Source of the DNA: a virus
Strand: one strand, 5' to 3'
IMG/VR virus record: IMGVR_UViG_3300046474_000239
Coordinates: 1 to 64,000 of that record
Length of the DNA stretch: 64,000 nt
Both the position numbers and the translations under genes were made by a program. Positions 4,678-21,167 of the stretch are shown here, piece after piece (within the stretch, counting starts at the first letter, position 1; each line of letters starts with the position of its first letter). The notes under the pieces are model-generated. The model saw nothing but the letters and a program-made list of their open reading frames with translations, searched no databases and had not been told where the DNA came from.

Positions 4678-5660
4678 CCGTCACCCGAAGAACCAGGACT
4701 CGCGTGGTAGCAGAACCAGAACCCACCGTGAGCCGCAGCACAATCGCCCTGCGCCGTCGTCGTGGCCAGACGGACGAGCAAGTACCGAACTCTGGGCGCC
4801 GGGCGGGGGTCTGCGACAAGGACCAGCAGGTCGTATCCGCACCGAACACTGACTACCCCCTGACGGAGATCCTGGACAAGGCCAGTTATGACATGCGACC
4901 AGCCCGGCCAGGCCCGTACCTCCACGTCAGCGACCTACTCCACAAGTGCATCCGCAAGAAGGCCCTGGAAGAGCGCTACGACGCGATGCCTGCCCAGCAG
5001 CGCCTTACCATGTCCGACATGCTTACGTTCTCCATGGGCGATGCTGTGCACGATACGCTCAAGGCCAGGGCCAGGGTCGGGCGGCCGGACATCGTATGGG
5101 GCATATGGTCCTGCAAGTGCAGCTTCCTCAAGCATGAAGAGCCCTGCACCTACGCAGAGATCGACCAGGAGGAAACCTGCCCACATTGCAACTCCGTGGT
5201 AGATCAGTATCATGAAGTCTCAATGCGCGACGATGAATACGGCATAGTGGGCAACCCGGATCTGATCCTTTATTTTGCCCGCAAGGACGCCCTACACGTC
5301 ACCGAACTGAAGTCCATGGCACACAAAGGGTGGGAAGAACTGGTCCGCCCTGTGCCGGAGCACGTTATCCAAGTCGTCTTCTACTGGCACCTCATGCACC
5401 GCAAGGGGTACAGGCTGACCGACAAGGTTTCGATCCTCTACTGCACCAAGCAGTGGCAGTTCGGCAACAAGACCCCGTTCAAAGAATTCTTGATTGATCC
5501 GGTCGCATCGCTAGATCGCCTGGACCAGTACATAGAAGACGCCAAAGCGTACAAAGCTGCGCAGACAGGTGGGGAGCTTCCTCTTCGCACCTTCTGCTCG
5601 CATGAGTCCGCGAAAGGCGCCAAGTCGTGCGGTGTATTGCAGCTCTGCTTCGGAGAATAA
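4674..5660 (+). CDS. Cas4/RecB-like PD-(D/E)XK exonuclease with Cys clusters
   Basis: HVSDL..C.RK, G..VH, GNPD, ELKS, Q...Y motif, CxC/CxxC insert and C-terminal Cys residues. Confidence 0.8.
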   Translation: MTVTRRTRTRVVAEPEPTVSRSTIALRRRRGQTDEQVPNSGRRAGVCDKDQQVVSAPNTDYPLTEILDKASYDMRPARPGPYLHVSDLLHKCIRKKALEERYDAMPAQQRLTMSDMLTFSMGDAVHDTLKARARVGRPDIVWGIWSCKCSFLKHEEPCTYAEIDQEETCPHCNSVVDQYHEVSMRDDEYGIVGNPDLILYFARKDALHVTELKSMAHKGWEELVRPVPEHVIQVVFYWHLMHRKGYRLTDKVSILYCTKQWQFGNKTPFKEFLIDPVASLDRLDQYIEDAKAYKAAQTGGELPLRTFCSHESAKGAKSCGVLQLCFGE

Positions 5661-5662
5661 AC

Positions 5663-6178
5663 ATGTCACGGATCGTACGACGTACCCGCCCAGTCGTGGC
5701 GGAGGAGCAAGAGGGGTACATCCTGGGAATTGACCCTGGGAACTCCGGCGCGCTGGCAATACTCACCGACTCGGGTGCCTTCGTTGACGCGCTGATCATC
5801 CCTATCGTTTCGTCAGGCAAGAGCAACCGGGTAAACGGAGCGGCCGTAGCTGCCTTCCTTGCCCAGTACGACATCGCGCATGCGTACATTGAAAAGGTGG
5901 GCGCTATGCCAGGCAACGGTGGCACCAGCATGTTCACCTTCGGCCACTCCGCAGGAAAGGTAGAGGGAGTAGTAGAGGGCCGGATGATCCCGGTCACTCA
6001 CCTGACACCGCAGTTCTGGAAGAAGGCCGGTAACCTGGTCAACAAACCGAAGGACGCAGCCCGCTCCAGGTGCGTCCAGCTTTACCCGCACGTCCGAATC
6101 TTAGATACCAAGATCCGGGGCGGGGCGGTAGGAGATGCTATACTCATCGCCAGGGCCGGACATGGTTTGTCGATGTGA
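5663..6178 (+). CDS. RuvC-like Holliday junction resolvase
   Basis: ILGIDPG, IEKV, SMF.FG...G, TPQ.WKK, DA.LIA. Confidence 0.85.
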   Translation: MSRIVRRTRPVVAEEQEGYILGIDPGNSGALAILTDSGAFVDALIIPIVSSGKSNRVNGAAVAAFLAQYDIAHAYIEKVGAMPGNGGTSMFTFGHSAGKVEGVVEGRMIPVTHLTPQFWKKAGNLVNKPKDAARSRCVQLYPHVRILDTKIRGGAVGDAILIARAGHGLSM

Positions 6179-6318
6179 GCCCGATGCAATCAATTGCACG
6201 AAGTAAAAAATCGCTTGTGAAGGTTGAAACTTAGTTAGGCCACCCCTACTATCCAACTCGCGAGCTGTTAAACCTCACCACGGCAAATCGCCACCCAATC
6301 ACTCGGAAGGTCACGACC

Positions 6319-7788
6319 ATGGCAAACGCAAAAGCAAAAGCTAAACCCGCCCAGGCAAAGGAAGAGGCGGCACCGGAATTCGCAGAAGGCTCCTGGGTCC
6401 GCTTCCTCGGCTACGAGAAGGGCACCAAGAAAGAGGAGATGATCCTCAACAAAGACGAATCGTACGAAGTCGTCGCGCTGCCTGGCGAAGAAGAAGTTGA
6501 CGGCGACGTGATCCAAACCGGCTACGTGCTGCGTCTGGAAAACCCGGACTTCGATCCGAAGAAGAAAGAAAACCCGGACACCAACCCTAAGTTCCTGGAA
6601 ACCGAAGTGTTCCCGGAAGAGATCGAAGCGGGCGAAGCGCCGGAAGGCGAAGGCGATGCGATCACCTACGAAGAGCTGGCCGCGTACAGCAAAGCAGAGC
6701 TGCTCGAATTCGCCACGGCGAACGAAGTCAAGCTGACTGCCGCTCAAAAGAAAACCCCGGAAACCTTGCTCGCTACCCTGGCCGCAGAATTCGGCCTGGA
6801 GCCAGCAGCCGAAGAAGAAGAGCCTGAAACTCCTCCGGCCAAGCCTGAAACCGCTGCCGCGAAGAAGAAGCGCGAAGCCCAGGAAGCTGCCGACGCTAAA
6901 GCAGCCAAGGCCAAGCCACCGACCGCAGCCGAGAAGAAGGCCGCAGCAGCCGCCGAAAAACTGGCAGCCGCCCCTAAAGGCAAAGCCACTGCCAAAGGCA
7001 AGGCCCCGGCCGCGCCGAAGGACGAGGAAGAAGAAGTCGACCCAGACTTCGTGCCTGAACTCGAAGGCGAAGACGAAGCGGTCCTCTCCCTGGTCGAAGG
7101 CGACGTTGACCTGGTCGCGGTAGCCCAGGACCTGGAATCGGCGGTTGCCGTATCCGAGTACCAGTTGGGCGGCGTGCTGTACCACATCAAGAAAGAAAAG
7201 CTGCACCTGGCTACCGACAAGAAGGGCAAGCTGCTCGATCCTGAATACGGCGAAACCGGTGGCTTCAAGAAGTTCCTGTTGGATAACTTCAACATCGACT
7301 ACCGCAAGGCCACGTACCTGATCGACATCTACATCAACTTCACCCTGGCCGGTATCGAAAATCCGTCCGACGTGGTTGGCCGTATCGGCTGGACCAAGGC
7401 AAGCAAGATCGCCAAGCTGGTCGGTGTCGAAGGCGCAGACGTTGACGGTCTGGTTGACGTAGCCGAGAAGAACACCGTTGCGGATCTGTCCGAGATCATC
7501 AAGGAGCAGTTCTCTCCTGAAGGCGGCAGCGACAAGCCACCATCGGCTACCCGTATCACTCTGCGCTTCCGCTACCTGGAAGAAGAAGCCAACGTCTTCG
7601 AAGACGCGCTGAAAGAGCTGGCTGACCAGTTCGGCCAGAAGCCTGAAGAAGCGTTGCTCCAGTTGGTCATCGACGCACACGCTCGCGAAGTCTCGGGCGC
7701 TGGCGGCCACAACCAGGAAGAAGAAGAGCAACCGGCCAAGGGCGGCAAAGCAGCAACCAAACCCGCTCGGGGTAAGGCTCGCGCCTAA
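6319..7788 (+). CDS. Large acidic and Ala/Lys-rich protein, probably abundant and DNA-binding
   Basis: Strong codon bias, own terminator, HeH/Rho-N-like segment YSKAELLEFA, AK-rich linker, helical C-terminal domain. Confidence 0.75.
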   Translation: MANAKAKAKPAQAKEEAAPEFAEGSWVRFLGYEKGTKKEEMILNKDESYEVVALPGEEEVDGDVIQTGYVLRLENPDFDPKKKENPDTNPKFLETEVFPEEIEAGEAPEGEGDAITYEELAAYSKAELLEFATANEVKLTAAQKKTPETLLATLAAEFGLEPAAEEEEPETPPAKPETAAAKKKREAQEAADAKAAKAKPPTAAEKKAAAAAEKLAAAPKGKATAKGKAPAAPKDEEEEVDPDFVPELEGEDEAVLSLVEGDVDLVAVAQDLESAVAVSEYQLGGVLYHIKKEKLHLATDKKGKLLDPEYGETGGFKKFLLDNFNIDYRKATYLIDIYINFTLAGIENPSDVVGRIGWTKASKIAKLVGVEGADVDGLVDVAEKNTVADLSEIIKEQFSPEGGSDKPPSATRITLRFRYLEEEANVFEDALKELADQFGQKPEEALLQLVIDAHAREVSGAGGHNQEEEEQPAKGGKAATKPARGKARA

Positions 7789-7807
7789 GCCTCAGCGATA
7801 GCAGCGC

Positions 7808-7838
7808 AAAAAGGCACTCCATCGCGGGTGCCTTTTTT
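7808..7838 (+). terminator. Intrinsic (possibly bidirectional) terminator
   Basis: AAAAAGGCACTC-catcgc-GGGTGCCTTTTTT. Confidence 0.85.
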
Positions 7839-7853
7839 CATAGGAGAAGGAAA

Positions 7854-8627
7854 ATGGCAGCTAAGAAAGTTCCGACCCGCGTGCCAACCAGGGTGCCAAC
7901 TCGCGTGCCAACCAAGGCGCCAAGCAAGGCCCGTACGGCGGTAGACACGCGGGCGGCGATACCTCCACCCCTGGACATGTCGAAGATCAAACTCAAGCTG
8001 GAGTATGTCGACATCAACGACATCGTTCCGTACGAGTGGAACGCAAGGGATAACGCCAAGGCAGTCGCGGCGGTCAAGGCCTCGATCAAGACCTTCGGCT
8101 TCATCATCCCTATCGTGATCGACGACGACAATGTCCTGGCCGCTGGACACACCCGTACCGAAGCTGCCAAAGAGCTGGGTATGGCAGAGGTGCCCGCCGT
8201 TCGCGCCAGCCACCTGACCGAAGACCAGATTAAAGCCTTCCGCCTGATCGACAACAAGGTAGCCAGCATCGCCGATTGGGACTTCAACCTCCTGGCCGCA
8301 GAGATGCAGCAGCTCGAAGGTCTGTTCGACATGACGGACTACGGCTGGACTACCCAGGAGATCGACTGCCTCAGCTCGATGGTCGGTGATGACTGCCTGA
8401 CCACCTCCGGCCTGGGCACGGGCGGCCAGCGTGACGCAGAGGATGCAGAGCGTGAGCCAGCCGGTCGACGTGCACCTACCCGTGCCCGCTTCGTGTTGGG
8501 TGAGCTATGCTTCTTCGAAGACGCCAACCTCTACCGCTCCTGGGTACAGGGACTGCGCGAGCTGCACAACTTCGATGAAGAGCTGATCGCTGAAGACCTC
8601 AAGCGCCGCTTGGGCATTTTGGTATAA
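7854..8627 (+). CDS. ParB/sulfiredoxin N-terminal domain protein
   Basis: PYEWNAR.N, SIKTFGF..PIVID, AGHTR..AA (GxxRxxA), FRLIDNK; N-terminal (VPTR)x3. Confidence 0.9.
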   Translation: MAAKKVPTRVPTRVPTRVPTKAPSKARTAVDTRAAIPPPLDMSKIKLKLEYVDINDIVPYEWNARDNAKAVAAVKASIKTFGFIIPIVIDDDNVLAAGHTRTEAAKELGMAEVPAVRASHLTEDQIKAFRLIDNKVASIADWDFNLLAAEMQQLEGLFDMTDYGWTTQEIDCLSSMVGDDCLTTSGLGTGGQRDAEDAEREPAGRRAPTRARFVLGELCFFEDANLYRSWVQGLRELHNFDEELIAEDLKRRLGILV

Positions 8628-8636
8628 GGAGGCCCT

Positions 8637-10193
8637 ATGGCCGTTCAACGAGTGAGACGCCTACGGCACGCCAGGGCGACCGTGGACCTGGAAGCCGACG
8701 TAGTCCAGATGATCGGGGTGGATGACCTGACCCCGGACGGCAAGAACCCACGGAAGGCTGACCAGGCCCGCTCCGCGCTACTACGTCTGTCCCTAGATAA
8801 GCTGGGCTTCCTCATGCCGCTATTCCGTCAAAGGTCTAGCGGCTTGTTGCTGTCTGGGCACCAGCGCCTCACTCAGTCGAAAGGCCTGGGCTTCCCAACC
8901 GTGCCCGTCGTGGACGTGGACGTAGCGGACGACGAGGTGATGAACATCAACTTGCTGTTCAACCGCCTGACCAACGACTTCAATGCCTTCGACACTGGAG
9001 CCACGGCCAAGGGCCGCATGGACATGCAAGGCATCCTGAAGCTGCTGGAGGCCCTGCCGGATCGGGCGGACGATGAGCACCCCGCCAACCACTGCAAGGT
9101 AGAACCTATCCGTCAGTTCGCCAACGGAGTAGCAGACCAGTACGACAAGAAAGCCGCCGTTACCGCTGGCGCGTTCACCCGTATGAATATCCGCATCCCG
9201 CTCGTCGTCAGCGAGTCCGGCCTCGTGGTCAACGGCGTTAACCGGATGTTCTCCGCGCTCGACCGTGGCATTGAGGAATGGCCAGTAGTCAGGATCCCAG
9301 ACAACATCGCAGCGGTTGCGCTCCAGGCGCTCAACTACTTGAGCATGGACTTCCACGTCAGTGAGGATTTCAAGAACCTGTTGCGCTCCTCGGCGTTCCG
9401 TCGCGTGTCGAACAACCGGGGCACAGTGGGCAAGTCCTACCGCTTCTGGGCCAACGGCTGCCGGTCGCTCCTGGACCGCGAGAGTTACACCACTCAATAC
9501 TGGGTGAACTTCCGCGACATCCACGGCACCAACATCCTCGACTTCGGGGGCGGCCTCTGCAAAGTGGCACCGTACCTTCAGACCAAGGGCTTCAACGCCA
9601 TCGACTTCGAGCCGTACCGGGTGGACCCGATCCTCAACGAAGCCGAACCATCCTTGCGCTACAGCCGCGAGCAGGCCAAGAAGTTCCTGGACGCGATCCA
9701 GGACCCCAAGCACCGCTTCGACAGCATCTTCCTTTCGGCGGTTCTGAACTCGGTGCCGTTCCCGGAGGATCGCTTGATGGTCCTGGCAATCGTGCACGCG
9801 CTCTGCTCGAAGGAGACGGTGGTCTACGGGACCTGCCGTGACCTATCCGACTTCGACTACGAGTACGGCGGTGTGCGGAACGGCAACTACTTTGTCTGGG
9901 ATACAGAGCCTGGCGTGCGCCTGGGTGACGTGTCGTCTCGGCCGAAGCTCCAGAAGTTCATGACGCAGGAGGAGGCACGCGGCTACTTCCAGCGTTGGTG
10001 GAAGACCATTGAGTTCTGGCCGGGCGGCAACGTGTTCTACTTCAAGCTGACTAACCCTATGGTCATGAACCAGAAGGCCCTACAGCAGAGCCTGGCTTTC
10101 GAATTTGATTTGCCCTTCGCGGACGGTGGTAGACTCGGTCTGGCCAACGAGGCAATCAAGGCCTTCAGCAAGAGACTGGGCCGCAAACTGTAG
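8637..10193 (+). CDS. Tandem ParB-like domains fused to a class I SAM-dependent methyltransferase-like domain
   Basis: NPRK..LGFLMP..LLSGHQR; second degenerate PLVV..VVNGVNR; ILDFGGG, DFEPY, FDSIFLSAVLNSVP. Confidence 0.8.
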   Translation: MAVQRVRRLRHARATVDLEADVVQMIGVDDLTPDGKNPRKADQARSALLRLSLDKLGFLMPLFRQRSSGLLLSGHQRLTQSKGLGFPTVPVVDVDVADDEVMNINLLFNRLTNDFNAFDTGATAKGRMDMQGILKLLEALPDRADDEHPANHCKVEPIRQFANGVADQYDKKAAVTAGAFTRMNIRIPLVVSESGLVVNGVNRMFSALDRGIEEWPVVRIPDNIAAVALQALNYLSMDFHVSEDFKNLLRSSAFRRVSNNRGTVGKSYRFWANGCRSLLDRESYTTQYWVNFRDIHGTNILDFGGGLCKVAPYLQTKGFNAIDFEPYRVDPILNEAEPSLRYSREQAKKFLDAIQDPKHRFDSIFLSAVLNSVPFPEDRLMVLAIVHALCSKETVVYGTCRDLSDFDYEYGGVRNGNYFVWDTEPGVRLGDVSSRPKLQKFMTQEEARGYFQRWWKTIEFWPGGNVFYFKLTNPMVMNQKALQQSLAFEFDLPFADGGRLGLANEAIKAFSKRLGRKL

Positions 10194-10202
10194 GAGGTCC
10201 CC

Positions 10203-10418
10203 ATGGAAGCGCCACCGACTGTCGAGTACCGAGGAGCCCAAGGGCGGGAGATGCGCGATGACAGCGTAGCCTCAGCCCTGCGGGAAGAAGCCAACAAGCT
10301 GGACCTAATCATCAAGGGACGCACCATCGGTGGCGACGTATGCCTGGACCCTGACGAGGCGCGGGGGTTGTCCAATAAGTTGCGAACATTGGCAGCCCAA
10401 CTCAATTGCAGATCTTGA
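10203..10418 (+). CDS. Small hypothetical protein
   Basis: AGGAGG RBS, fills the gap. Confidence 0.65.
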   Translation: MEAPPTVEYRGAQGREMRDDSVASALREEANKLDLIIKGRTIGGDVCLDPDEARGLSNKLRTLAAQLNCRS

Positions 10419-10444
10419 TGCAATCAATTGCACGGAGAAACGTC

Positions 10445-11176
10445 ATGCTGATCATGGACCACGAAAACGAACGCACCATCCACATACCGAACAACCCGAA
10501 CAAGTTCGTCTTTGATACGGAAGTGGCGGCCATCTTCGACGACATGGCGGAGCGTTCTATCCCCATGTTCCGTGAGGCCCATGCACTGCATGCCCGTTAC
10601 CTGGCTCCATGGATCGCACGAGGCGCGAGCGTCCTGGACATCGGCGCATCACGCGGGGCGTTTCTGGCAGCACTTGATACGGAGTACGGCATCGAGAACT
10701 TGAATGTCCGCGCTACCGATAGCTCCCCCGCCATGGTGGGCTACACGTCCAGTGACTTCCCTTCGGTCGACGTGGAGCAGGTGGACATTACTTCGCGGGG
10801 CTTCATGAACTGCCTGCACACCTACGACGTGATCAACATGACCTACGTCCTCCAGTTCATACCCAAGGCCCAGCAGCGCCTGGTATTGTCCAAGGTATGC
10901 AGCATGATCAAGAAAGGCGGGGCGTTGATCCTCGGACAGAAGAACAAAGACGATTCTCCTATTGGCGCGGCTGTTCATGAGCAGTACATTCAATGGCGTA
11001 TGGCCAACGGATACACTCGTGAGGAGATCGAGGCCAAGACCGCAGCGCTGGCTAACAGCATGTGGCCAATGACCGAGCCGGACCTGGTGGAAGCGCTCAA
11101 GAGCTTCGGCATGACCGAAGTGGCGAGGACCTGCTCCTGGGGACCCTTCAGCAACTTACTCTGCATCAAGAGGTAA
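10445..11176 (+). CDS. CmoA (carboxy-SAM synthase)-like SAM-binding protein, divergent
   Basis: FVFD..VA.IFDDM..RSIP, VLDIGASRG, DSSPAM, VLQF, GGALIL..K, ANGY..EEI..K..L.N.M follow the CmoA pattern recalled from E. coli. Confidence 0.85.
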   Translation: MLIMDHENERTIHIPNNPNKFVFDTEVAAIFDDMAERSIPMFREAHALHARYLAPWIARGASVLDIGASRGAFLAALDTEYGIENLNVRATDSSPAMVGYTSSDFPSVDVEQVDITSRGFMNCLHTYDVINMTYVLQFIPKAQQRLVLSKVCSMIKKGGALILGQKNKDDSPIGAAVHEQYIQWRMANGYTREEIEAKTAALANSMWPMTEPDLVEALKSFGMTEVARTCSWGPFSNLLCIKR

Positions 11177-11181
11177 CACCC

Positions 11182-11952
11182 ATGGCTACCGGCGATAACA
11201 ACGAGCGCCCAGGGCAACGACGCATCGTAGTGCGCCGGACCCGGAACGGGGCACGCTTCACACCACGCGGGCGGATCGACGGAACTCCTCGTGAGATAGA
11301 CGAGGTAGACGACGCTATCGAGCCGGAGCTGCTGGAACGTCACGTCCGCGAGCAGGCCCGTGCTACTCCTGAGGACCGGGATGACACGGGCGGCCCCAAC
11401 CCACGGCAACGGATGCTGGAAGTAGAGCAGGCAGGTAATGCCACCTACGCCAAAGAGTTCCGCCTGGGTCTACTGCAACGCCTCCTCCTGCGTAAGCTCC
11501 CCCTGGACCAGATTGCCCAGCAGCTTGGCGTATCCATCTCGACCATCGAGAAGGACAGGGCGCTGATCAAGAAGCGGATGCGCGAGGCGGCCAAGGAACT
11601 GAACATCGACGAGATGATTGGTGGCCAGACCTTCATGTACGACGAGATCGCTGCGATGGCCATGCGGATCGCCTCGACTACCTCTGGTGAACGTAGCGTG
11701 CCCGTGGCGATGCAGCTCGCAGCCATGCGTACAACACTGGCCAGCCAGGCAGACAAGACCCGCTTCCTACAGTCGGCTGGAGTCTTCGATGTACTGCGCT
11801 TCCGCAAGGCCGACAGCGGCGAAGCAATGTCCGATATTCAGATCCTCATGGAGCGTACTGCGCAGATGTTGTCTGGTCTGGCAGACGATGGCATGGGCGG
11901 CTTCCAGGCTTTCGACCTGAACGAGATCGAACCAGAGAGCGAGGAGCTTTGA
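11182..11952 (+). CDS. Terminase small subunit (HTH)
   Basis: LDQIAQQLGVSISTIEKD HTH; directly upstream of terminase large subunit. Confidence 0.7.
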   Translation: MATGDNNERPGQRRIVVRRTRNGARFTPRGRIDGTPREIDEVDDAIEPELLERHVREQARATPEDRDDTGGPNPRQRMLEVEQAGNATYAKEFRLGLLQRLLLRKLPLDQIAQQLGVSISTIEKDRALIKKRMREAAKELNIDEMIGGQTFMYDEIAAMAMRIASTTSGERSVPVAMQLAAMRTTLASQADKTRFLQSAGVFDVLRFRKADSGEAMSDIQILMERTAQMLSGLADDGMGGFQAFDLNEIEPESEEL

Positions 11953-11953
11953 C

Positions 11954-13879
11954 ATGGCCGCACCACTGAAGATCCCTGCCCGCCGTCAGCAGTATCTGAT
12001 GGAGCAGGTCGACGAGATCGCGAGCGGCCTGGGCAACCAGCAGTTCGGTGAGATGTACAAGGCAGCCGTGGGCAACATGCTTCGGGGTGACGACACCCTG
12101 TTCAAGTTCATGTCTGCCCTGGAGCGTGTGCCGGTCGACATCGAAACCTTCCTGGACGGCGAGGAGTTCCTGGGCGCAACTGACTTGGTGATGTGGCCCG
12201 CCGTACGCCAGGCAGTCATCGACGCCAACAAGAACTGGTGGAGGGGCACCAAGGACCCGGAGAACGGCGCCTACGATACCGTGTGCCTGATGGGCTGCAC
12301 CCGTTCCGGTAAGACGACCCAAGCCATGATCGGCACCGCCTACCACCTGTACATCCTGACCTGCATGAAGAACCCGCAGACCTGGTACGGCCTGCCCTCG
12401 GCTACGTCCATCGTGTTCCCGATCATCGGTGCCAAGCCGCACGTAACGAAGAAGGTGGTCTACGCGCCGCTGCGCAAGCTGATCGAGCGGATGCCGTACT
12501 TCCAGACCACCGGCCTGCCGGACAAGAACATCGACTCGGAAATGTACTTCGTGGAGAAGAACATCCGCGTCGTGCCCGTGGGCGGTAGCGAAGATTCGAT
12601 CCTCGGTGAAGCAACCATCGGCGGCCTGATCGACGAGATCAACTTCATGAACGTGGTGCAGAAGTCGAAGAAGGCTGAAGTGTCCACCGGGCGGAGCGGC
12701 GTGTACGACCAGGCAGCCATGGTGTACGACACATTCACCCGTCGTCGTCGCGGTACGTTCGCCAAGAAGTTCCCGCAGATTGGTTTGATCTATGCCTCGT
12801 CGTCGACCCGGTACAAGGGCGACTTCACTGACAAGCTGAAGGCAGAGACCGAGAAGTACGACCACAAGAACGTCTACATCTTCAACAAGCGCCAGTTCGA
12901 TGTGCAGCCGAAGGAGAACTACTGCGGTGAGACCTTCCGCCTGTTGATCGGTAACGACGTGCAACACGACACCCGCGTGCTGAAGGATGACGAAGAGGTG
13001 GTCGTAGGCGCCTGGGTGGAAGACGTACCTATCGAGTACCTCCAGGACTTCCAGCGTAAGCCATACGACGCGATGCGCGACGTGCTGGGCCTGTCGTCCA
13101 ACGTGATCAGCCCGTTCATCAAGACCCGCTACAAGATCTACGAGTGCGTGGAGTACGGCCAGGAGCTTCAGCTCGAATCGTTCCTGCTGAAGGACCATGT
13201 GATCCTCGGCGTCGACGGCATGCCCCAGGTGCAGTCGAAACACTACTGCATGAACCCATCACGCCCGCGCTACGTTCACATCGACTTGTCGCAAACAGGG
13301 GACCGGTGTGGCATTGCCATGGTGCGTTTCGACGGTATGATTTCAATACGCCGCAACGGGGACATGACAGAGATGCTCCCGCTCGGGGCGGTAGAGATGG
13401 CTTGCTCGATTGAGCCGGACGCAAACAACGAGATCGACATTGCCGAGGTACGAAGTTTCGTACGCAGTCTGATGAAGACCTACGGCTACCCGATCAAGGG
13501 CGTGTCCTACGACGGCTTTGACAGCCGCGAGTCCATCCAGCAGTGGCGCAAGGATCGGATGCCTTCCAAGGTCATCTCGATGGACCGAACCAGCGGACCC
13601 TACAAGCAGTTCCGGGATGCGCTGTACGACCGACGCATTGCGCTCCTTGATGACCCTGACACCGTGAGCGAGATCCTCGACCTGGAGTACGACGAGTCGA
13701 AAGACAAAGTCGACCACACCATGATCGGGCGGAAGGACGTGTCGGATGCCATCTGCGGTGCGTACACCAACATGCTGGAACGTCGCAGCACCTGGGCGAA
13801 CGTGACGGATGATATGACCGATGACAACACTATCGGTCGCCACGATGACGAGCGTAACGACGACGTTCGTCCTACATAG
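11954..13879 (+). CDS. Terminase large subunit
   Basis: Walker A GCTRSGKTT, Walker B GGLIDE, coupling motif ASS, RNase H-like HIDLS...D, SYD, KDVSDA. Confidence 0.9.
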   Translation: MAAPLKIPARRQQYLMEQVDEIASGLGNQQFGEMYKAAVGNMLRGDDTLFKFMSALERVPVDIETFLDGEEFLGATDLVMWPAVRQAVIDANKNWWRGTKDPENGAYDTVCLMGCTRSGKTTQAMIGTAYHLYILTCMKNPQTWYGLPSATSIVFPIIGAKPHVTKKVVYAPLRKLIERMPYFQTTGLPDKNIDSEMYFVEKNIRVVPVGGSEDSILGEATIGGLIDEINFMNVVQKSKKAEVSTGRSGVYDQAAMVYDTFTRRRRGTFAKKFPQIGLIYASSSTRYKGDFTDKLKAETEKYDHKNVYIFNKRQFDVQPKENYCGETFRLLIGNDVQHDTRVLKDDEEVVVGAWVEDVPIEYLQDFQRKPYDAMRDVLGLSSNVISPFIKTRYKIYECVEYGQELQLESFLLKDHVILGVDGMPQVQSKHYCMNPSRPRYVHIDLSQTGDRCGIAMVRFDGMISIRRNGDMTEMLPLGAVEMACSIEPDANNEIDIAEVRSFVRSLMKTYGYPIKGVSYDGFDSRESIQQWRKDRMPSKVISMDRTSGPYKQFRDALYDRRIALLDDPDTVSEILDLEYDESKDKVDHTMIGRKDVSDAICGAYTNMLERRSTWANVTDDMTDDNTIGRHDDERNDDVRPT

Positions 13880-13891
13880 GGGTACAGGGAC

Positions 13892-14188
13892 ATGATGATT
13901 TTCGAGGTGCTGGGCACACTCTGGCTGGTCTTGGTAGGTCTTCGAGCACCTACGCTCACCTGGGAGAGCCGCGTGATGTACAGGCTCTTCAGGACCCGTT
14001 ATACGAAGAAGCAGGCGGCGTATGTAACCGTCCGCTACGTCTGGCTCCCCGGACTGCTCATGGCCCCAGGGATCTTTCTCATTGAAGGCTTCGACACCTT
14101 CAAGCCAGCGCAACTCGAAGACATCAAATCCGCAGCGATCCACCTGGACCGCCTGCTTCAACAACGTGCTCAGCCCGAGGAGCAGTGA
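13892..14188 (+). CDS. Small membrane protein
   Basis: Two hydrophobic segments, operonic position. Confidence 0.55.
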   Translation: MMIFEVLGTLWLVLVGLRAPTLTWESRVMYRLFRTRYTKKQAAYVTVRYVWLPGLLMAPGIFLIEGFDTFKPAQLEDIKSAAIHLDRLLQQRAQPEEQ

Positions 14189-14189
14189 C

Positions 14190-15038
14190 ATGCAACAGTA
14201 CCGCGAGATGGTTTCCTACATCCTTCAAGACGGCGAGGCCCGCCAGTGGCGTAACGGCCACACAGGTATCAGCGTCTTCGATTACCGGATGGAGTTCGAC
14301 TTGCGCAAAGGCTTCCCGTTGCTGGGGCTCAAGTTCGTACCCTTCATGGGTCAATGCCTCGGCGAGTTGCTTGGCTTCCTGCGTGGCTACACCAGCGCTG
14401 CGGACTTCCGCAAACTGGGCTGCACCATCTGGGACCTGAACGCCAACAACGAACCGGCCTGGCTCGACAACCCTGCCCGCCGTGGGCACGATGACCTCGG
14501 GCGGATCTACGGTGCACAGTGGCGGGACATCCGCGTCGAGGACGGCGGCAGCTACGCGGTCAAGGACCAGATGTGGGAACTCCTCAACGGTCTGCGCAAC
14601 GACCCACACGGGCGGCGTCACGTAGTCAGCGCATGGAACCCCGGCGAGCTGCATCTCATGGCCCTGCCTCCTTGCCACATGTTCTTCCAATGCTACGTGA
14701 GCAACGACGGACACCTGGACCTGAAGATGTACCAGCGCAGCGCCGACACCTTCCTGGGCGTGCCCTTCAACATCGCCAGCTATGCAGCCCTGATGATCGT
14801 CATCGGCAAGCTGACCGGCCTCACGCCCCGTCGCCTGATCATGGACTTCGGCGATGCTCACCTGTACTCCGACCACCTGGAGAAGGCGACCATCATGATG
14901 TCCCGTCCTTCGCTGCGCTTGCCGGAGCTGGAAGCGGACATCGGCCCGAGCCAGTCTCTGGAGTCGATTGAACCGGACCAGTTCAACTTGGTAGGGTATG
15001 AGTCACACCCAGCCATCAAAGCGAGCATGGCCGTATGA
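14190..15038 (+). CDS. thyA: Thymidylate synthase
   Basis: GRIYGAQWR, GRRH..SAWNP, LPPCH, YQRSAD.FLGVPFNIASY, DAHLY. Confidence 0.96.
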   Translation: MQQYREMVSYILQDGEARQWRNGHTGISVFDYRMEFDLRKGFPLLGLKFVPFMGQCLGELLGFLRGYTSAADFRKLGCTIWDLNANNEPAWLDNPARRGHDDLGRIYGAQWRDIRVEDGGSYAVKDQMWELLNGLRNDPHGRRHVVSAWNPGELHLMALPPCHMFFQCYVSNDGHLDLKMYQRSADTFLGVPFNIASYAALMIVIGKLTGLTPRRLIMDFGDAHLYSDHLEKATIMMSRPSLRLPELEADIGPSQSLESIEPDQFNLVGYESHPAIKASMAV

Positions 15039-16465
15039 CTACCAAACGAATCCCCCGGACCCGCAGCGGCATGGTCCACGGTAGGGCCGTAGGGCACGGC
15101 CCGAATCCCGGCCTGCGCCTGGCAGACCCGAGCACCAGCGGAGCAATCGCCCTGGCACTCGAAGAGATCAAGAACCAGCCTGGCAAGCTGGCGAAGGTTG
15201 AGATGCTCAAGGCACTGCGCGACAGCTACCCGTTCGCCCTGGACGTGATGAAGGCCGTCTTCGATGTCAACGTGACCTACGGAATCAAGAAGGTGCCCGA
15301 GGCCCGGATCATCCCGAACCGCACGGTGCGCAAGGAGTTCGACTCAGACACCTTGGGCATCCTGGAAGACCTTGCAAACCGCACGCTGACAGGTAACCGC
15401 GCCCAGGAAGTGCTCGCTGTGGAGCTGGGCCAACTCACCATCGAGTCTCGTGGCCTGCTCACCGCGATCCTGCAACAGAACCTGCGGGCGGGGTTCAGCG
15501 TCGACGTGGTCAACCAGGTATGGGGCAAGGTCCTCAAGGTCGTGAAGATCCAACTGGCAAACACCTACTTCATGAAGCTGAAGGCAGGGGAGAGCGGACC
15601 ACGCAAGGTCAACCCGAAGGCCCGCTTCCCTGCATGGCATGACATCAAGTACGACGGCGTGCGCGGTTGTTACCTGAGCGACGACCCTGGCTTCTTCAGC
15701 CGTAAGGGCCTGCCGCTGGAAGTACCGCCAAGCCTGGACAAACTGATCCAGTCCTTCCTGTCCGACCTGGCTGCCCAGCGCAACCACGAGACCGGGCTCG
15801 ATGAAGCGTTATTCCTGGACTGTGAGATCGTGCCGCTCAATGGCGGGTTCGCGGACATCATGAGCCAGGTGCGTGCCTCGAAGCGGGGAGCGAGCGAGGG
15901 AACTACCGGTATTCGTATCATCGACATCCTGTCCCGTACCGAGTATGAAGCAGGCAAGTCGGACGACGACCAGAAGACCCGCCGTGCGTACCTGGAGGAG
16001 ATGATCAAGACGCCGTGGTTCCAGCCTTACACCGGGTACATCAAGCTGACCGAAGGGCAGCACGTAGAAGATGATGCACAGGCTCAGAGGTTTTACGCCA
16101 AGGTGCTGCTCAACGGTGGCGAAGGCACGATGCACAAGCACTACGAGGACTTCTGGGAAGCCAAGCGTTCTGATTCCTGGCTGAAGCTGAAGCCTGCGGA
16201 GGAGATCGAGGGTGAGATCGTCGGGTACAAGGAGGGCGCCAAGCACAGCAAGTGGGAGGGCTTCCTCGGGGCGGTCCTGGTCAAGATCCCTAGCGGGGTA
16301 ATCGTCTCGGTCGACGGCATGACGGACAAGGTGCGGGAGTACATCCACCACCACCGCGAAGAACTCATGTTCGAGACGGCTGAGCTGCTCTACCACGAGA
16401 AGACCCCAGACGGCAGCCTGCGCCATCCACGGTTCAAGCCTGGCTTCGTTCGCGACGATAAATAA
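15035..16465 (+). CDS. ATP-dependent DNA ligase
   Basis: Motif I IKYDGVR, LDCE, EG.M.K, WLKLK, OB-fold ending SLRHPRF. Confidence 0.93.
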   Translation: MTTKRIPRTRSGMVHGRAVGHGPNPGLRLADPSTSGAIALALEEIKNQPGKLAKVEMLKALRDSYPFALDVMKAVFDVNVTYGIKKVPEARIIPNRTVRKEFDSDTLGILEDLANRTLTGNRAQEVLAVELGQLTIESRGLLTAILQQNLRAGFSVDVVNQVWGKVLKVVKIQLANTYFMKLKAGESGPRKVNPKARFPAWHDIKYDGVRGCYLSDDPGFFSRKGLPLEVPPSLDKLIQSFLSDLAAQRNHETGLDEALFLDCEIVPLNGGFADIMSQVRASKRGASEGTTGIRIIDILSRTEYEAGKSDDDQKTRRAYLEEMIKTPWFQPYTGYIKLTEGQHVEDDAQAQRFYAKVLLNGGEGTMHKHYEDFWEAKRSDSWLKLKPAEEIEGEIVGYKEGAKHSKWEGFLGAVLVKIPSGVIVSVDGMTDKVREYIHHHREELMFETAELLYHEKTPDGSLRHPRFKPGFVRDDK

Positions 16466-16497
16466 TTTACGTGCAATCAATTGCACCGGAGAAAAAC

Positions 16498-17028
16498 ATG
16501 CTGCTTTCCTACCTTGAACTCTGTGAGTTAATCGAACAAGGCGTTATCAAAGGCGTCGAGGAACACGAGGTCCAGGCCGCCAGTATCGACCTGAAGCTGG
16601 GCACAGGGTTCAAGGTGGAGGCGAGCAACGTCTCTTCCCATATCGTAGACCTCAGTGAACGTCAATCTATCGCTTTCTATGAGGTCCAGGAGAGGGTCAT
16701 TCTGGCTCCCCAGGAGTTCGTACTGGCACACACCGAAGCGACGTTTGATTTGCCACTAGACATCTCAGCAGCCTTCTGCCTAAAGTCTTCCATGGCTCGC
16801 AACGGCCTGGAGCATTTGAATGCTTGCTGGGCCGATGCCGGGTGGAACGGATCAACCCTGACCATGGAGTTAAAAAACATGACGCGGTTCCACACGCTCA
16901 TGCTTCAGGCAGGCATGTACATCGGTCAGATGAAGTTTTTCCGGCACACAGCGGTGCCCGAGGAGTTCAGCTACCGTGTGAGAGGACGGTACAACGGTGA
17001 TGCGTCCGTTAGTGCTATCAAGCCGTAA
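16498..17028 (+). CDS. dcd: dCTP deaminase
   Basis: ASIDLKLG, FVLAHT, KSSMAR.G, DAGW.G.LT.E, IGQM.F, Y.GRY. Confidence 0.9.
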   Translation: MLLSYLELCELIEQGVIKGVEEHEVQAASIDLKLGTGFKVEASNVSSHIVDLSERQSIAFYEVQERVILAPQEFVLAHTEATFDLPLDISAAFCLKSSMARNGLEHLNACWADAGWNGSTLTMELKNMTRFHTLMLQAGMYIGQMKFFRHTAVPEEFSYRVRGRYNGDASVSAIKP

Positions 17029-18738: not shown

Positions 18739-18918
18739 ATGACGCCCAGTGAACCTGGGGACCGCGAGTTGATAGACCGTATACTTGCGAGGACCCGCAT
18801 GTTTGTACCCAAGGAGCCCGAGCCTGAGAAGCCCGTCGAAGACGAACCCAAGCCCGAACCACCCACACCGAAAGAAAGCCGTCAGGCGAACCTACGCAGG
18901 AGATTGAGATCATGTTGA
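18739..18918 (+). CDS. Small Pro/Glu-rich hypothetical protein
   Basis: GGAGG RBS immediately after a 16-mer copy. Confidence 0.55.
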   Translation: MTPSEPGDRELIDRILARTRMFVPKEPEPEKPVEDEPKPEPPTPKESRQANLRRRLRSC

Positions 18919-21167
18919 GTCGGGACGTGTCCAACAAAAAAGCCCAAACCATTGAGTCGGGGCTTGGCAAGCAGATGATGGCGCAGGCCAAGTTCTACAT
19001 GGGCTACTCACGATGGGACGAGGAGACCGGGCGGTATGAAACCTGGGACGAAGCGGTAGCCCGAGTGATGAACATGCACCGCGCCAAGTACGCGCACTGC
19101 ATGACCGAGGAGCTGGAGGCGGCGATTGACTTCGCTGAAGAGATGTACCGCACCAAGCGAGTTCTGGGGGCACAGCGGGCGTTGCAGTTCGGCGGTGACC
19201 AGATCTTCAAACACGAAGCTAAACTGTACAACTGCTCCAGCTCCTACGCAGATCGCCCGGAGTTCTTCCAGGAAGCCATGTACCTACTGCTCTGCGGGTG
19301 CGGCGTGGGCTTCAGCGTACAGACACAGCATGTTGCTCAACTACCCGACATCGCACCGCGCAGCAGTGAATCCACGCTGTATGTTATCCCTGACTCGATA
19401 GAAGGATGGGCGGACGCCTTCGGGGTGCTCCTGTCTTCGTACTTCGTTGGCGGCGGAAGCTACCCGGAGTACCAGGGTAACCACATAGCGTTTGACTTTA
19501 GCCAGATACGCCCAAAGGGTGCGCTAATTTCCGGGGGCTTCAAGGCACCTGGGCCGGACGGTATTCGATTAGCCTTGCAGAAGTGCGAGAAGCTGATGGA
19601 GGACCTAGTGAGCAAGGGGTCGCGGATGTCGACTATTGGCGTCTACGACTTCGTGATGCACATGTCGGACGCGGTACTGTCGGGCGGTGTGCGCCGGTCT
19701 GCGACCATCTGCCTGTTCAGCAAAGACGACCAGGACATGCTGAAGGCCAAGACAGGCAATTGGTTTGTGGACAACCCGCAGCGCGGGCGGAGCAACAACT
19801 CAGCGATGCTGCTACGCGATGAACTGACCCGCGAAGAGTGGGCGGGCATCATGAAATCTGTCAAAGCCTTTGGCGAGCCAGGGTTTGTATTCACCCACAG
19901 CCTGGACGCCGCGTACAACCCCTGCGTAGAGATAGGCATGAAGCCTAAGCACTGGCTCACAGGCAAGACCGGCTTCCAGATGTGCAACCTCACCGAGATC
20001 AACGGTGGCATGTGCCGCACCCTGGCCGACCTGCTCAAGGCATGCCGGGCGGCAGCCATCCTGGGCACGCTCCAGGCAGGCTACACAAACTTCAGATACC
20101 TCACCCAGACCACCAAGGAGATTGTAGACCGCGAGGCGCTCCTGGGCGTGTCTATCACCGGCTGGATGAACAACCCGGAGGTTCTATTCGACAAGGGCAA
20201 CATGGTCGAAGGAGCTACCCTGGTTAAAGCGGTCAACCGCCAGATTGCCGCGATCATCAGCATCAACCCGGCACCGCGCACCACTTGCGCCAAGCCGTCC
20301 GGCAACGCCTCCGTCAAGCTGGGCACCGCCAGTGGCATCCATGGCGAGCACTCGCTGCGCTACTTCCGCAACGTACAGATGAGCGACACTGACGGCGTGT
20401 TGCACCTGATCCAGAAGGTCAACCCGGAGATGGTGGAAGCGTCAGTCTGGTCGCAGAACGGCACCGACAAGGTGGTCAGCTTTCCTGTCACTTCAGACCC
20501 GCAGTCGGTCTTCAAAGCTGACCTGATGGGGACAAAGCAACTTGAGTACGTCAAGCTGGCCCAGCAGTACTGGGTCGAAGGCGGGACCGACGAAACCCTG
20601 GCGGTAGACCCGCAGCTACGCCACAACATCTCCAACACCATATCGGTGGATAACTGGGATGAAATGGAGCAGTACCTGTTCGACAACCGTCAGTGGTTCG
20701 CCGGGGTCAGCCTGCTGTCTTCCAGCGGCGACAAGGACTTTGCCCAGGCACCGTTCACAGAAGTGGCCACGCTTGAGCAGATCACTGAACGCTATGGCAG
20801 CGCCAGCCTCCTGGCGAGCGGCCTGGTCGTCGACGGGCTGTACGCTTTCCACGATGACCTATGGAAGGCTTGCGCTACAGTCCTGGGCATAGGTGATACG
20901 CTGCACCCTACACACCGGGGAGACCTGATGAAGCGAGACTGGGTACGCCGGGCGGAGAAGTTTGCGCAGAACTTTTTCAGTGGAGACCTGCAACAGGCGA
21001 CTTACTGCCTCAAGGACGTATACAATTTCCATAAATGGGAGTCGCTCCTGCGCCACGTAAGCCCGATCAACTTCACCGAAGAGCTGTCCGAGCAGACCTA
21101 TACCGATGTGAACACCATGGGGGCTCAAGCGTGCTCCGGGGGTGTGTGCGACACGCAGACTTTCTAG
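18912..21167 (+). CDS. Ribonucleotide reductase catalytic subunit (monomeric class II-like sequence; class uncertain)
   Basis: YNC, GCGVGF, GGVRRSA, SNNS, GEPG, NPC.EI, CNLTEIN, KPSG, C-terminal CSGGVC. Confidence 0.92.
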   Translation: MLSRDVSNKKAQTIESGLGKQMMAQAKFYMGYSRWDEETGRYETWDEAVARVMNMHRAKYAHCMTEELEAAIDFAEEMYRTKRVLGAQRALQFGGDQIFKHEAKLYNCSSSYADRPEFFQEAMYLLLCGCGVGFSVQTQHVAQLPDIAPRSSESTLYVIPDSIEGWADAFGVLLSSYFVGGGSYPEYQGNHIAFDFSQIRPKGALISGGFKAPGPDGIRLALQKCEKLMEDLVSKGSRMSTIGVYDFVMHMSDAVLSGGVRRSATICLFSKDDQDMLKAKTGNWFVDNPQRGRSNNSAMLLRDELTREEWAGIMKSVKAFGEPGFVFTHSLDAAYNPCVEIGMKPKHWLTGKTGFQMCNLTEINGGMCRTLADLLKACRAAAILGTLQAGYTNFRYLTQTTKEIVDREALLGVSITGWMNNPEVLFDKGNMVEGATLVKAVNRQIAAIISINPAPRTTCAKPSGNASVKLGTASGIHGEHSLRYFRNVQMSDTDGVLHLIQKVNPEMVEASVWSQNGTDKVVSFPVTSDPQSVFKADLMGTKQLEYVKLAQQYWVEGGTDETLAVDPQLRHNISNTISVDNWDEMEQYLFDNRQWFAGVSLLSSSGDKDFAQAPFTEVATLEQITERYGSASLLASGLVVDGLYAFHDDLWKACATVLGIGDTLHPTHRGDLMKRDWVRRAEKFAQNFFSGDLQQATYCLKDVYNFHKWESLLRHVSPINFTEELSEQTYTDVNTMGAQACSGGVCDTQTF

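Follow-up and report, generated by a model that had tools for sequence, protein, structure and literature searches.

A ParB, ParB-ParB-methyltransferase and CmoA-like gene trio next to the terminase genes of a viral genome is a candidate carboxy-SAM-dependent DNA-modification module

The viral genome recorded in IMG/VR as IMGVR_UViG_3300046474_000239 contains three neighboring genes that encode a stand-alone protein with a ParB N-terminal (ParB-N) domain, a fusion of two ParB-N domains with a class I S-adenosylmethionine (SAM)-type methyltransferase domain, and a CmoA-like protein that is probably a synthase of carboxy-SAM (Cx-SAM). The record is a complete genome of 104,448 bp with 127-bp direct terminal repeats, and the window analyzed here is its first 64 kb (positions 1 to 64,000). 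We propose, with what we consider an even chance of being right, that this trio is a phage DNA-modification module that uses Cx-SAM and places a carboxymethyl mark on phage DNA. A preliminary description of the window had pointed to the same block of contiguous genes, running into putative terminase genes with gaps under 30 bp, and this was confirmed by gaps of 9, 9, 26, 5 and 1 bp in order across the block and by the location of all its genes on the + strand (Table 1). The same description had suggested that the CmoA homolog supplies the ParB-fused transferase, which then modifies DNA at or near packaging. The supply of the transferase is favored by the obligate pairing of the two genes, by the lack of a CmoB gene in the window genome and of C5-methyltransferase genes in six genomes, and by the CmoA-likeness of the protein, while the DNA acceptor and the coupling to packaging are still what we infer.

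The linkage of the genes was the first line of evidence. In 74 of the 75 related loci with enough flanking sequence, a CmoA-like open reading frame (ORF) was located 3′ of the fusion gene on the same strand, and in the 75th it was located ~7.5 kb further on; ~10 more distinct loci also carried this ORF (12 were returned, two of which overlap contigs already sampled). The order ParB, ParB-ParB-methyltransferase, CmoA-like recurred in about 85 other viral loci with enough flank, so that the neighborhood conservation proposed as a check in the preliminary description was observed, and the block arrangement is far beyond chance. Since the fusion and the CmoA-like protein were found together in every informative locus, they form an obligate pair. 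Nearly all related loci had the small ParB gene 5′ of the fusion gene, and in one relative (P0210) the small ParB is itself fused to the ParB-ParB-methyltransferase. In another relative (P0263) an intein is positioned within the invariant LFNR/TND motif of ParB domain 1, and both of these rare variants support the view that the proteins are a functional unit. In a third relative (P0257), possibly a recombinant or the product of misassembly, the first ~358 residues of the fusion are joined to a C-terminal half that is CmoA-like. No transferase domain lacking ParB domains was met in the searches made; an apparent stand-alone transferase (P0299, 274 residues, 105 members) was rejected as a gene-calling artefact, the full ParB-ParB-methyltransferase ORF being present in 12 loci. 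Some loci carry additional DNA between the fusion and CmoA-like genes, with inserts of 1-1.3 kb in L009, L012, L023, L030 and L033 and 3.7 kb of small genes, including a PHROG 85 thymidylate synthase gene, in L043 (7500-11200).

The fusion family is large, with 162 clusters at 50% identity (E < 1e-30) and 441 matching stretches in IMG/VR, and it includes cultured phages. The Pseudomonas (P. aeruginosa) phages SM1, PaMx31, UF_RH6 and PA_L9 carry the two proteins at 65 and 48% identity, Aeromonas phage HJ05 at 36 and 31% and Gordonia phage Evaa at 30 and 22%, and the trio of Evaa corresponds to gp1, gp2 and gp5, with gp6 as the terminase. PA_L9 appears in a phage-therapy case report. Because the trio is present in cultured phages, the proposal is testable at once. 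The family is at present annotated as ‘unknown function’ or wrongly as ‘tail fiber’: in several of the Pseudomonas phage records OL473897, OL622073, OQ383211, OL343755 and PP869205 the fusion is called a ‘tail fiber protein’ and the CmoA-like protein a ‘tail assembly protein’ or ‘DNA replication protein,’ all of which are plainly wrong annotations.

We then considered whether the CmoA-like protein has the features of a Cx-SAM synthase. Its start codon is the one given in the preliminary description, and it matched TIGR00740 (CmoA) at 1.2e-29 with 103.7 bits over 13-239 of 239, the next family scoring 1.6e-9. The score is below the equivalog cut-off of 193.3 bits; the homologs of HJ05 and Evaa scored 120.8 and 105.4 bits, and 115.6 bits was the score of SpCmoA from Synechococcus phage S-B43, whose synthesis of Cx-SAM has been demonstrated biochemically (PMC12783734). 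Since the validated SpCmoA is also under the cut-off, this threshold does not separate active phage CmoAs. A sequence search of the PDB gave strong matches, ranging from 8e-19 to 8e-17, to E. coli CmoA (4gek, 8e-19) and H. influenzae YecO only, with one marginal match to a phosphoethanolamine N-methyltransferase (0.003). The structure prediction recommended in the preliminary description agreed with this, as 4gek was the top fold match of an AlphaFold2 model with a predicted local distance difference test (pLDDT) score of 93.6 (Foldseek 3.6e-19, template modeling (TM) scores 0.81/0.85; VIA Z 26.7, root-mean-square deviation (rmsd) 2.2, 218 residues aligned). Among 61 family members F20, F28, P37, D62, G64, G68, M94, F137, K165, K198 and L202 are invariant, and these are common to E. 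coli CmoA and SpCmoA except for P37 and M94, which SpCmoA replaces by R and F, respectively; the other nine are kept in a Staphylococcus phage CmoA as well. The CmoA-specific N-terminal lid motif (F20, F28, P37, Y/F39) is conserved in the family. The contacts that E. coli CmoA makes with its cofactor, for which the residues and a salt bridge from Arg199 to the carboxylate have been described (PMC3663124), involve Tyr39/Asp62/Gly64/Ser66/Asp89/Asp117/Phe137, and these read F/D/G/S/D/D/F in the window protein. From these sequence and fold comparisons we consider it probable that the CmoA-like protein is a Cx-SAM synthase.

The fusion protein was analyzed with an alignment of 91 sequences of diverse relatives, which also served as input to an AlphaFold2 model (pLDDT 92.6, predicted TM score 0.90). 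The model showed ParB-N and class I methyltransferase folds, and the protein consists of ParB-N 1 at residues ~21-115, ParB-N 2 at ~151-235 and the transferase domain at ~242-476, and the transferase domain is followed by a conserved C-terminal tail of RLG plus three residues (…SKRLGRKL). Pfam identified ParB_N at residues 23-109 (17.6 bits; cut-off 26.3) and Methyltransf_23 at residues 297-401 (6.8e-7), and PHROG 498 matched the ParB part (2.7e-16). A PDB ParB sequence was matched at 1.6e-5, and in the predicted model ParB-N 1 resembled KorB-CTP (Z 9.8, rmsd 1.9 on residues 22-115) and ParB-CTPγS (Foldseek 4.5e-5). Judged by sequence, the domain carries the GxxR box and the following N...D box of ParB/Srx N-terminal domains, with G74 and R77 (GHQR) and N109 invariant and D114 near-invariant. 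The ‘double ParB’ of the preliminary description was borne out by HHalign, which aligned residues ~151-235 with residues ~21-107 of the same family at a probability of 98.3% (E 1.3e-14), the second ParB-N domain being diverged.

The C-terminal part of the fusion is a class I SAM-type methyltransferase domain by its motif I, its acidic residue after β2 and its fold. In motif I (LDFGGG) G304 and G306 are invariant and D302 is nearly so, E325 after β2 is 98% conserved and is followed by invariant P326, and class I methyltransferases scored Z 10-13.6 over residues 242-476. The nearest folds were the heterocyclic-toxin methyltransferase Rv0560c (Z 13.6) and METTL6 (13.0), then ToxA-type, glycine/sarcosine, TylM1, CcbJ and CypM N-methyltransferases. 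The loop N371-S-V-P374-F375-x-x-D378-R379 is almost invariant. Both motifs quoted in the preliminary description, LDFGGG and SAVLNSVP, are present as written, and the reading there of VLN as a sign of an amino-group target did not hold: N371-S-V-P374-F375 is one residue longer than NPPF and is in register with the generic ‘VLxHVxD’ motif after β4, so that VLN belongs to an ordinary post-β4 ‘VLxH’ motif of Methyltransf_11/23 and not to (D/N/S)PP(Y/F). The family alignment contained no Cys at ≥80% conservation in the transferase domain, and the lack of an invariant or near-invariant Cys argues against a covalent C5-pyrimidine mechanism as in CmoX. Conserved basic residues are R250, R255, R256, R379, K437 and K440. 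R250, R255, R256 and R379 are located around the predicted active site, which would be a small pointer to Cx-SAM use. A second small pointer, from sequence alignment, may be that N371 (‘SAVLN371’) aligned with Tyr200 (‘MGVLY200’) of CmoB in a weak HHalign match (probability 62%); CmoB binds the carboxylate of Cx-SAM through Lys91, Tyr200 and Arg315 (PMC4482062).

The stand-alone ParB protein scored 25.5 bits against Pfam ParB_N, slightly below the cut-off of 26.3. Its family alignment has invariant G98 with near-invariant H99 and R101 (a ‘GHTR’ motif) and invariant D133 and N134, and the protein ends in a conserved C-terminal domain with the terminus KRRLG (…KRRLGILV). We think of the protein as a probable DNA-loading or activator partner of the transferase. 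The RLG-type tail is conserved in both family alignments, of the small ParB and of the fusion (8600-8627 and 10170-10193, respectively), and may be a shared docking or dimerization peptide. Beyond this terminal RLG, HHalign gave no homology between the C-terminal half of the small ParB and the C-terminal part of the fusion (probability 0.7%). In a scan of the + strand of the 104-kb genome, [KR]LG followed by at most four terminal residues was present in only two ORFs, those of the small ParB (...KRRLGILV) and the fusion (...SKRLGRKL).

Other possible users of Cx-SAM were sought in the genomes. The preliminary description had seen no CmoB-like gene in the window, and this extends to the whole window genome, the sole genome searched for CmoB, in which no PF08003 match was obtained; the same genome contained no PF01555 or PF02086 (N6/N4 and D12 methyltransferases) and no tRNA genes. 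PF00145 (C5-methyltransferase) was absent from six complete trio genomes, namely the window genome, SM1, HJ05, Evaa and two more. A CmoY-type asparagine-synthase/amide ligase was absent from five of these six, and without such a ligase the carboxymethyl group is probably the final mark. In HJ05 (OQ594355.1 10737-11015, L102) a 438-residue ORF ~7 kb 3′ of the CmoA-like gene gave a weak asparagine-synthase/PP-loop match (26.4 bits, 1.8e-7), and this is the only possible CmoY-like ligase among the six genomes.

On the gene content, architecture, linkage and family assignments described above we would build a mechanism in four steps, covering Cx-SAM synthesis, Cx-SAM use, the DNA acceptor and its atom, and timing. 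First, judging from homology, the CmoA-like enzyme would convert SAM and host prephenate to Cx-SAM. Second, the class I transferase domain of the fusion would transfer the carboxymethyl group from Cx-SAM, as the obligate linkage and the lack of another partner suggest, with a nitrogen or oxygen nucleophile more likely than a C5-pyrimidine; the absence of an invariant or near-invariant Cys together with the N-methyltransferase fold neighbors makes N-directed transfer the more likely. Third, the acceptor would be phage DNA, and architecture and precedent suggest that the ParB-N pair of the fusion and the separate ParB protein might bring the enzyme to double-stranded DNA or hold it there, much like the ParB-like activators of phage thymine dioxygenases. 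Fourth, and weakest of the steps, the place before the terminase genes might mean that the trio is expressed late or acts on DNA shortly before it is packaged. In a bolder form, which we put forward only tentatively and hold to be on the unlikely side, the fusion family would be a natural Cys-independent DNA carboxymethyltransferase that writes a base unseen in nature (e.g., N6-carboxymethyladenine, N4-carboxymethylcytosine or another N-/O-carboxymethyl adduct), is loaded on double-stranded DNA, perhaps at specific sites, by a clamp of three ParB domains immediately before packaging or in its course, and occurs widely among ~100-kb phages from soil and rhizosphere and of Pseudomonas, as well as in some actinophages.

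The closest known system is that of S-B43, in which phage CmoA and CmoX, a C5-methyltransferase homolog, produce 5-carboxymethylcytosine and CmoY then ligates glycine (PMC12783734, Nat Commun, Dec 2025). As here, a phage CmoA homolog adjoins a SAM-type transferase and ParB-domain proteins are often near, ParBc proteins being frequent beside CmoA and CmoX (PMC12783734), and SpCmoA and the window CmoA-like protein, neither of which has Arg199, diverge from E. coli CmoA to about the same extent. CmoX, in contrast, belongs to PF00145 and has an SPPC motif with the catalytic Cys and Arg350, whereas the transferase here is a ParB-ParB-class I methyltransferase fusion without a conserved Cys. According to its authors, no carboxymethyltransferase candidate of the N6 or N4 type turned up with CmoA (PMC12783734). 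The bacterial CmoA-CmoB pair (tRNA cmo5U34; PMC4482062, PMC3663124) is alike in that a Cx-SAM synthase is encoded beside a Cx-SAM-using class I transferase. CmoB, which acts on tRNA, lacks the ParB domains of which the fusion has two; the fusion gave no PF08003 match, and only Tyr200 of the three CmoB ligands could be placed on it (N371). With regard to the ParB domains, ParB-like proteins activate post-replicative phage thymine dioxygenases on double-stranded DNA (PMC13229309, PNAS 2026). In the 5mYOX176/ParB176 system, as proposed here, an enzyme that modifies phage DNA bases after replication has a ParB-like partner in which no DNA-binding domain is obvious, and terminases are frequent neighbors (19% of contigs), as a terminase also adjoins the present trio. 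5mYOX176 is, however, an Fe(II)/2-oxoglutarate dioxygenase with a separate ParB, while the present SAM-type transferase carries two ParB-N domains itself and a third is encoded by a gene of its own. Finally, the ParB-N-fused N6/N4 DNA methyltransferases (PHROG 498; CDD ‘ParB_N_like_MT’) share an N-terminal ParB-N domain joined to a methyltransferase, often beside the terminase, but these have a PF01555 domain and DPPY-type motifs and use SAM, whereas the present family is Methyltransf_23-like, has a duplicated ParB and always has a CmoA gene 3′. In the part of the literature that we covered, nothing was found on the ParB-ParB-methyltransferase fusion family or on CmoA with non-C5 DNA transferases.

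The first demonstration of natural DNA carboxymethylation dates from late 2025 and concerns C5 of cytosine alone, with a C5-methyltransferase homolog as the enzyme; no further type of DNA carboxymethyltransferase was described there (PMC12783734). Since that work already describes phage CmoA with the DNA transferase CmoX, the concept is less new than the preliminary description assumed; what is new here is an acceptor enzyme of a different, undescribed family unrelated to CmoX. If the proposal is true, the trio would be a second, mechanistically different phage use of Cx-SAM and a second instance in which DNA base modification has enlisted ParB-fold proteins, and if confirmed it would provide a new enzyme for putting a carboxyl handle on DNA.

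Several observations weigh against the proposal of a Cx-SAM-using DNA-modification module. The GERR box of ParB reads GHQR in the fusion. The nearest structures of the transferase domain are small-molecule, peptide and tRNA methyltransferases and not DNA methyltransferases; no canonical (D/N/S)PP(Y/F) motif was found in the fusion, and no target-recognition domain was recognized in it. Its likeness to E. coli CmoB is weak (the local HHalign match above, E 7e-5). For the CmoA-like protein, the methyltransferases MM_2633 and BelI almost tie with 4gek as fold match (Z 25.1 and 25.0 vs. 26.7), and Arg199 and Glu164 of E. coli CmoA are replaced by Thr and Gln. Position 199 is T, E, S or A in the family, Glu in SpCmoA and Ser in the Staphylococcus phage CmoA that adjoins a C5-methyltransferase. 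As Arg199 is missing in the validated SpCmoA too, Thr199 is not disqualifying, and phage enzymes can do without Arg199. The family has Q, D, E or H at position 164, but all four reference CmoAs keep Glu164, and Gln164 of the window protein is a real deviation. The place beside the terminase genes could, moreover, be genome organization only.

Three other explanations were weighed. The best of them, which we consider unlikely, is that the fusion is an ordinary SAM-dependent methyltransferase acting on phage DNA and that the CmoA-like enzyme has a separate task, e.g., draining or converting host SAM against SAM-dependent defences or feeding another acceptor. SAM depletion by phage CmoA has been raised as a possibility (PMC12783734), the transferase domain matched only generic SAM-methyltransferase families, with Methyltransf_23 as given above, and the CmoB-like Cx-SAM ligands are not verifiable in the fusion; near-absolute linkage over very divergent phages would nevertheless be unexpected for independent functions, and a Cx-SAM maker without a user in a complete genome would be odd. 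It is slightly less likely still that the pair uses Cx-SAM on an acceptor other than DNA (RNA or tRNA, a packaging or virion protein, a nucleotide or a small metabolite), with the ParB/Srx domains as nucleotide-binding or regulatory modules. The ParB/Srx fold occurs in non-DNA enzymes too, and the nearest folds, which include METTL6, an enzyme of tRNA, and N-methyltransferases of small molecules and peptides, would suit this explanation. All known Cx-SAM users other than CmoX, in addition, act on tRNA, peptides or peptidyl-nucleotide (PMC10491745). It is harder to reconcile with the presence of three ParB-N domains, with the conservation of both a stand-alone ParB partner and the position next to the terminase, and with a genome free of tRNA genes. 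The presumed Gram-negative host would own CmoA and CmoB, which also counts against it. Phage enzymes that modify DNA are, besides, already known to have ParB-like proteins as partners (PMC13229309, PMC12783734). The weakest explanation, that the CmoA-like protein is, like BelI/CysG or MM_2633, a methyltransferase of the usual kind with a CmoA-like fold and that two methyltransferases act in series or on different targets, would account for the sub-threshold TIGR00740 score, the unconserved Arg199 and Glu164 and the near-tied fold matches, but we regard it as improbable, with the validated SpCmoA likewise sub-threshold and without Arg199, the CmoA-specific N-terminal motif (F20, F28, P37, Y/F39) as well as K165 and K198 invariant in the family, and the strong PDB sequence matches confined to CmoA and YecO.

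The terminase genes next to the trio were called TerS and TerL in the preliminary description, and this identification stood in part, since distant relatives have clear terminases at the same place while the window genes gave only weak helix-turn-helix (HTH) and PHROG 9 matches. The putative TerS had no PHROG match, and distant relatives carry a bona fide PHROG 57 TerS at its position. In the putative TerL the PHROG 9 match covers residues 436-568 (the nuclease part), and no Pfam or PDB sequence match was obtained. The terminase families 3′ of the trio are of the PHROG 9 type in the window and HJ05, PHROG 57 plus PHROG 15 in L054, L075 and L080, and PHROG 38 in Evaa, and L064 gave a weak PHROG 2 match (7.7e-6) at the TerL position. 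The pre-terminase position of the trio is kept while the terminase family differs (four PHROG families), and a trio directly 5′ of unrelated terminase families fits some link to packaging or late timing.

Table 1. Features of the block in window coordinates.
Feature	Coordinates	Strand	Details
Stand-alone ParB-N protein	7854-8627	+	257 aa; PHROG 620 at 2e-49
ParB-ParB-methyltransferase fusion (“PPM”)	8637-10193	+	518 aa; PHROG 5475 (‘unknown function’) full length, 5e-138
Small ORF	10203-10418	+	71 aa; GGAGG ribosome-binding site; no family match
14-mer TGCAATCAATTGCA, one copy	10419-10432	+	between small-ORF stop codon and CmoA ribosome-binding site
CmoA-like protein, probable Cx-SAM synthase	10445-11176	+	243 aa; ATG 10445 behind GGAGA; TIGR00740 1.2e-29
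Putative small terminase subunit (TerS)	11182-11952	+	256 aa; weak HTH-type matches and position/synteny
Putative large terminase subunit (TerL)	11954-13879	+	641 aa; PHROG 9 at 2.3e-7 and position/synteny

The small ORF between the fusion and CmoA-like genes had homologs in the five closest loci only and was absent in SM1, and it is not a conserved part of the system. The 14-mer that follows it, TGCAATCAATTGCA, has 23 copies in the window (e.g., at 6185, 10419, 16472 and 18712) against 0.02 expected. Exact copies were present in 22 related viral loci whose fusion is ≥55% identical, and the SM1 region and the group at 33-36% identity had none; the element could be a candidate site for the ParB-domain proteins or a regulatory element. 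In a promoter and terminator scan of 5500-15200 the counts were not above those of shuffles.

The + strand carries every large ORF of the window's first 20 kb and the main ORFs over the remainder. The block is preceded by UvsX/RecA-like, Cas4-like exonuclease and RuvC-like genes. Directly 5′ of the small ParB gene is a gene for a 489-residue protein (6319-7788, PHROG 17202), which has this position in 44 related loci and is absent from the distant (33-36% identity) group. This protein had no Pfam, NCBIfam or PDB match, its Atlas matches were viral hypotheticals only, and an assignment to Amidoligase_2 was rejected as noise (TM 0.17). The block is followed by ThyA, DNA ligase, dCTP deaminase, PhoH and ribonucleotide reductase genes. 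Nothing in the gene content points to pre-replicative base replacement, and a hydroxymethylase role for the thymidylate synthase-like protein was dropped, its score of 241.8 passing the ThyA equivalog cut-off of 108.35. With this ThyA-type thymidylate synthase (14082-15038), a dCTP deaminase (16471-17028) and a ribonucleotide reductase (18912-21167), all encoded 3′ of the terminase genes, the phage makes its own deoxythymidine triphosphate.

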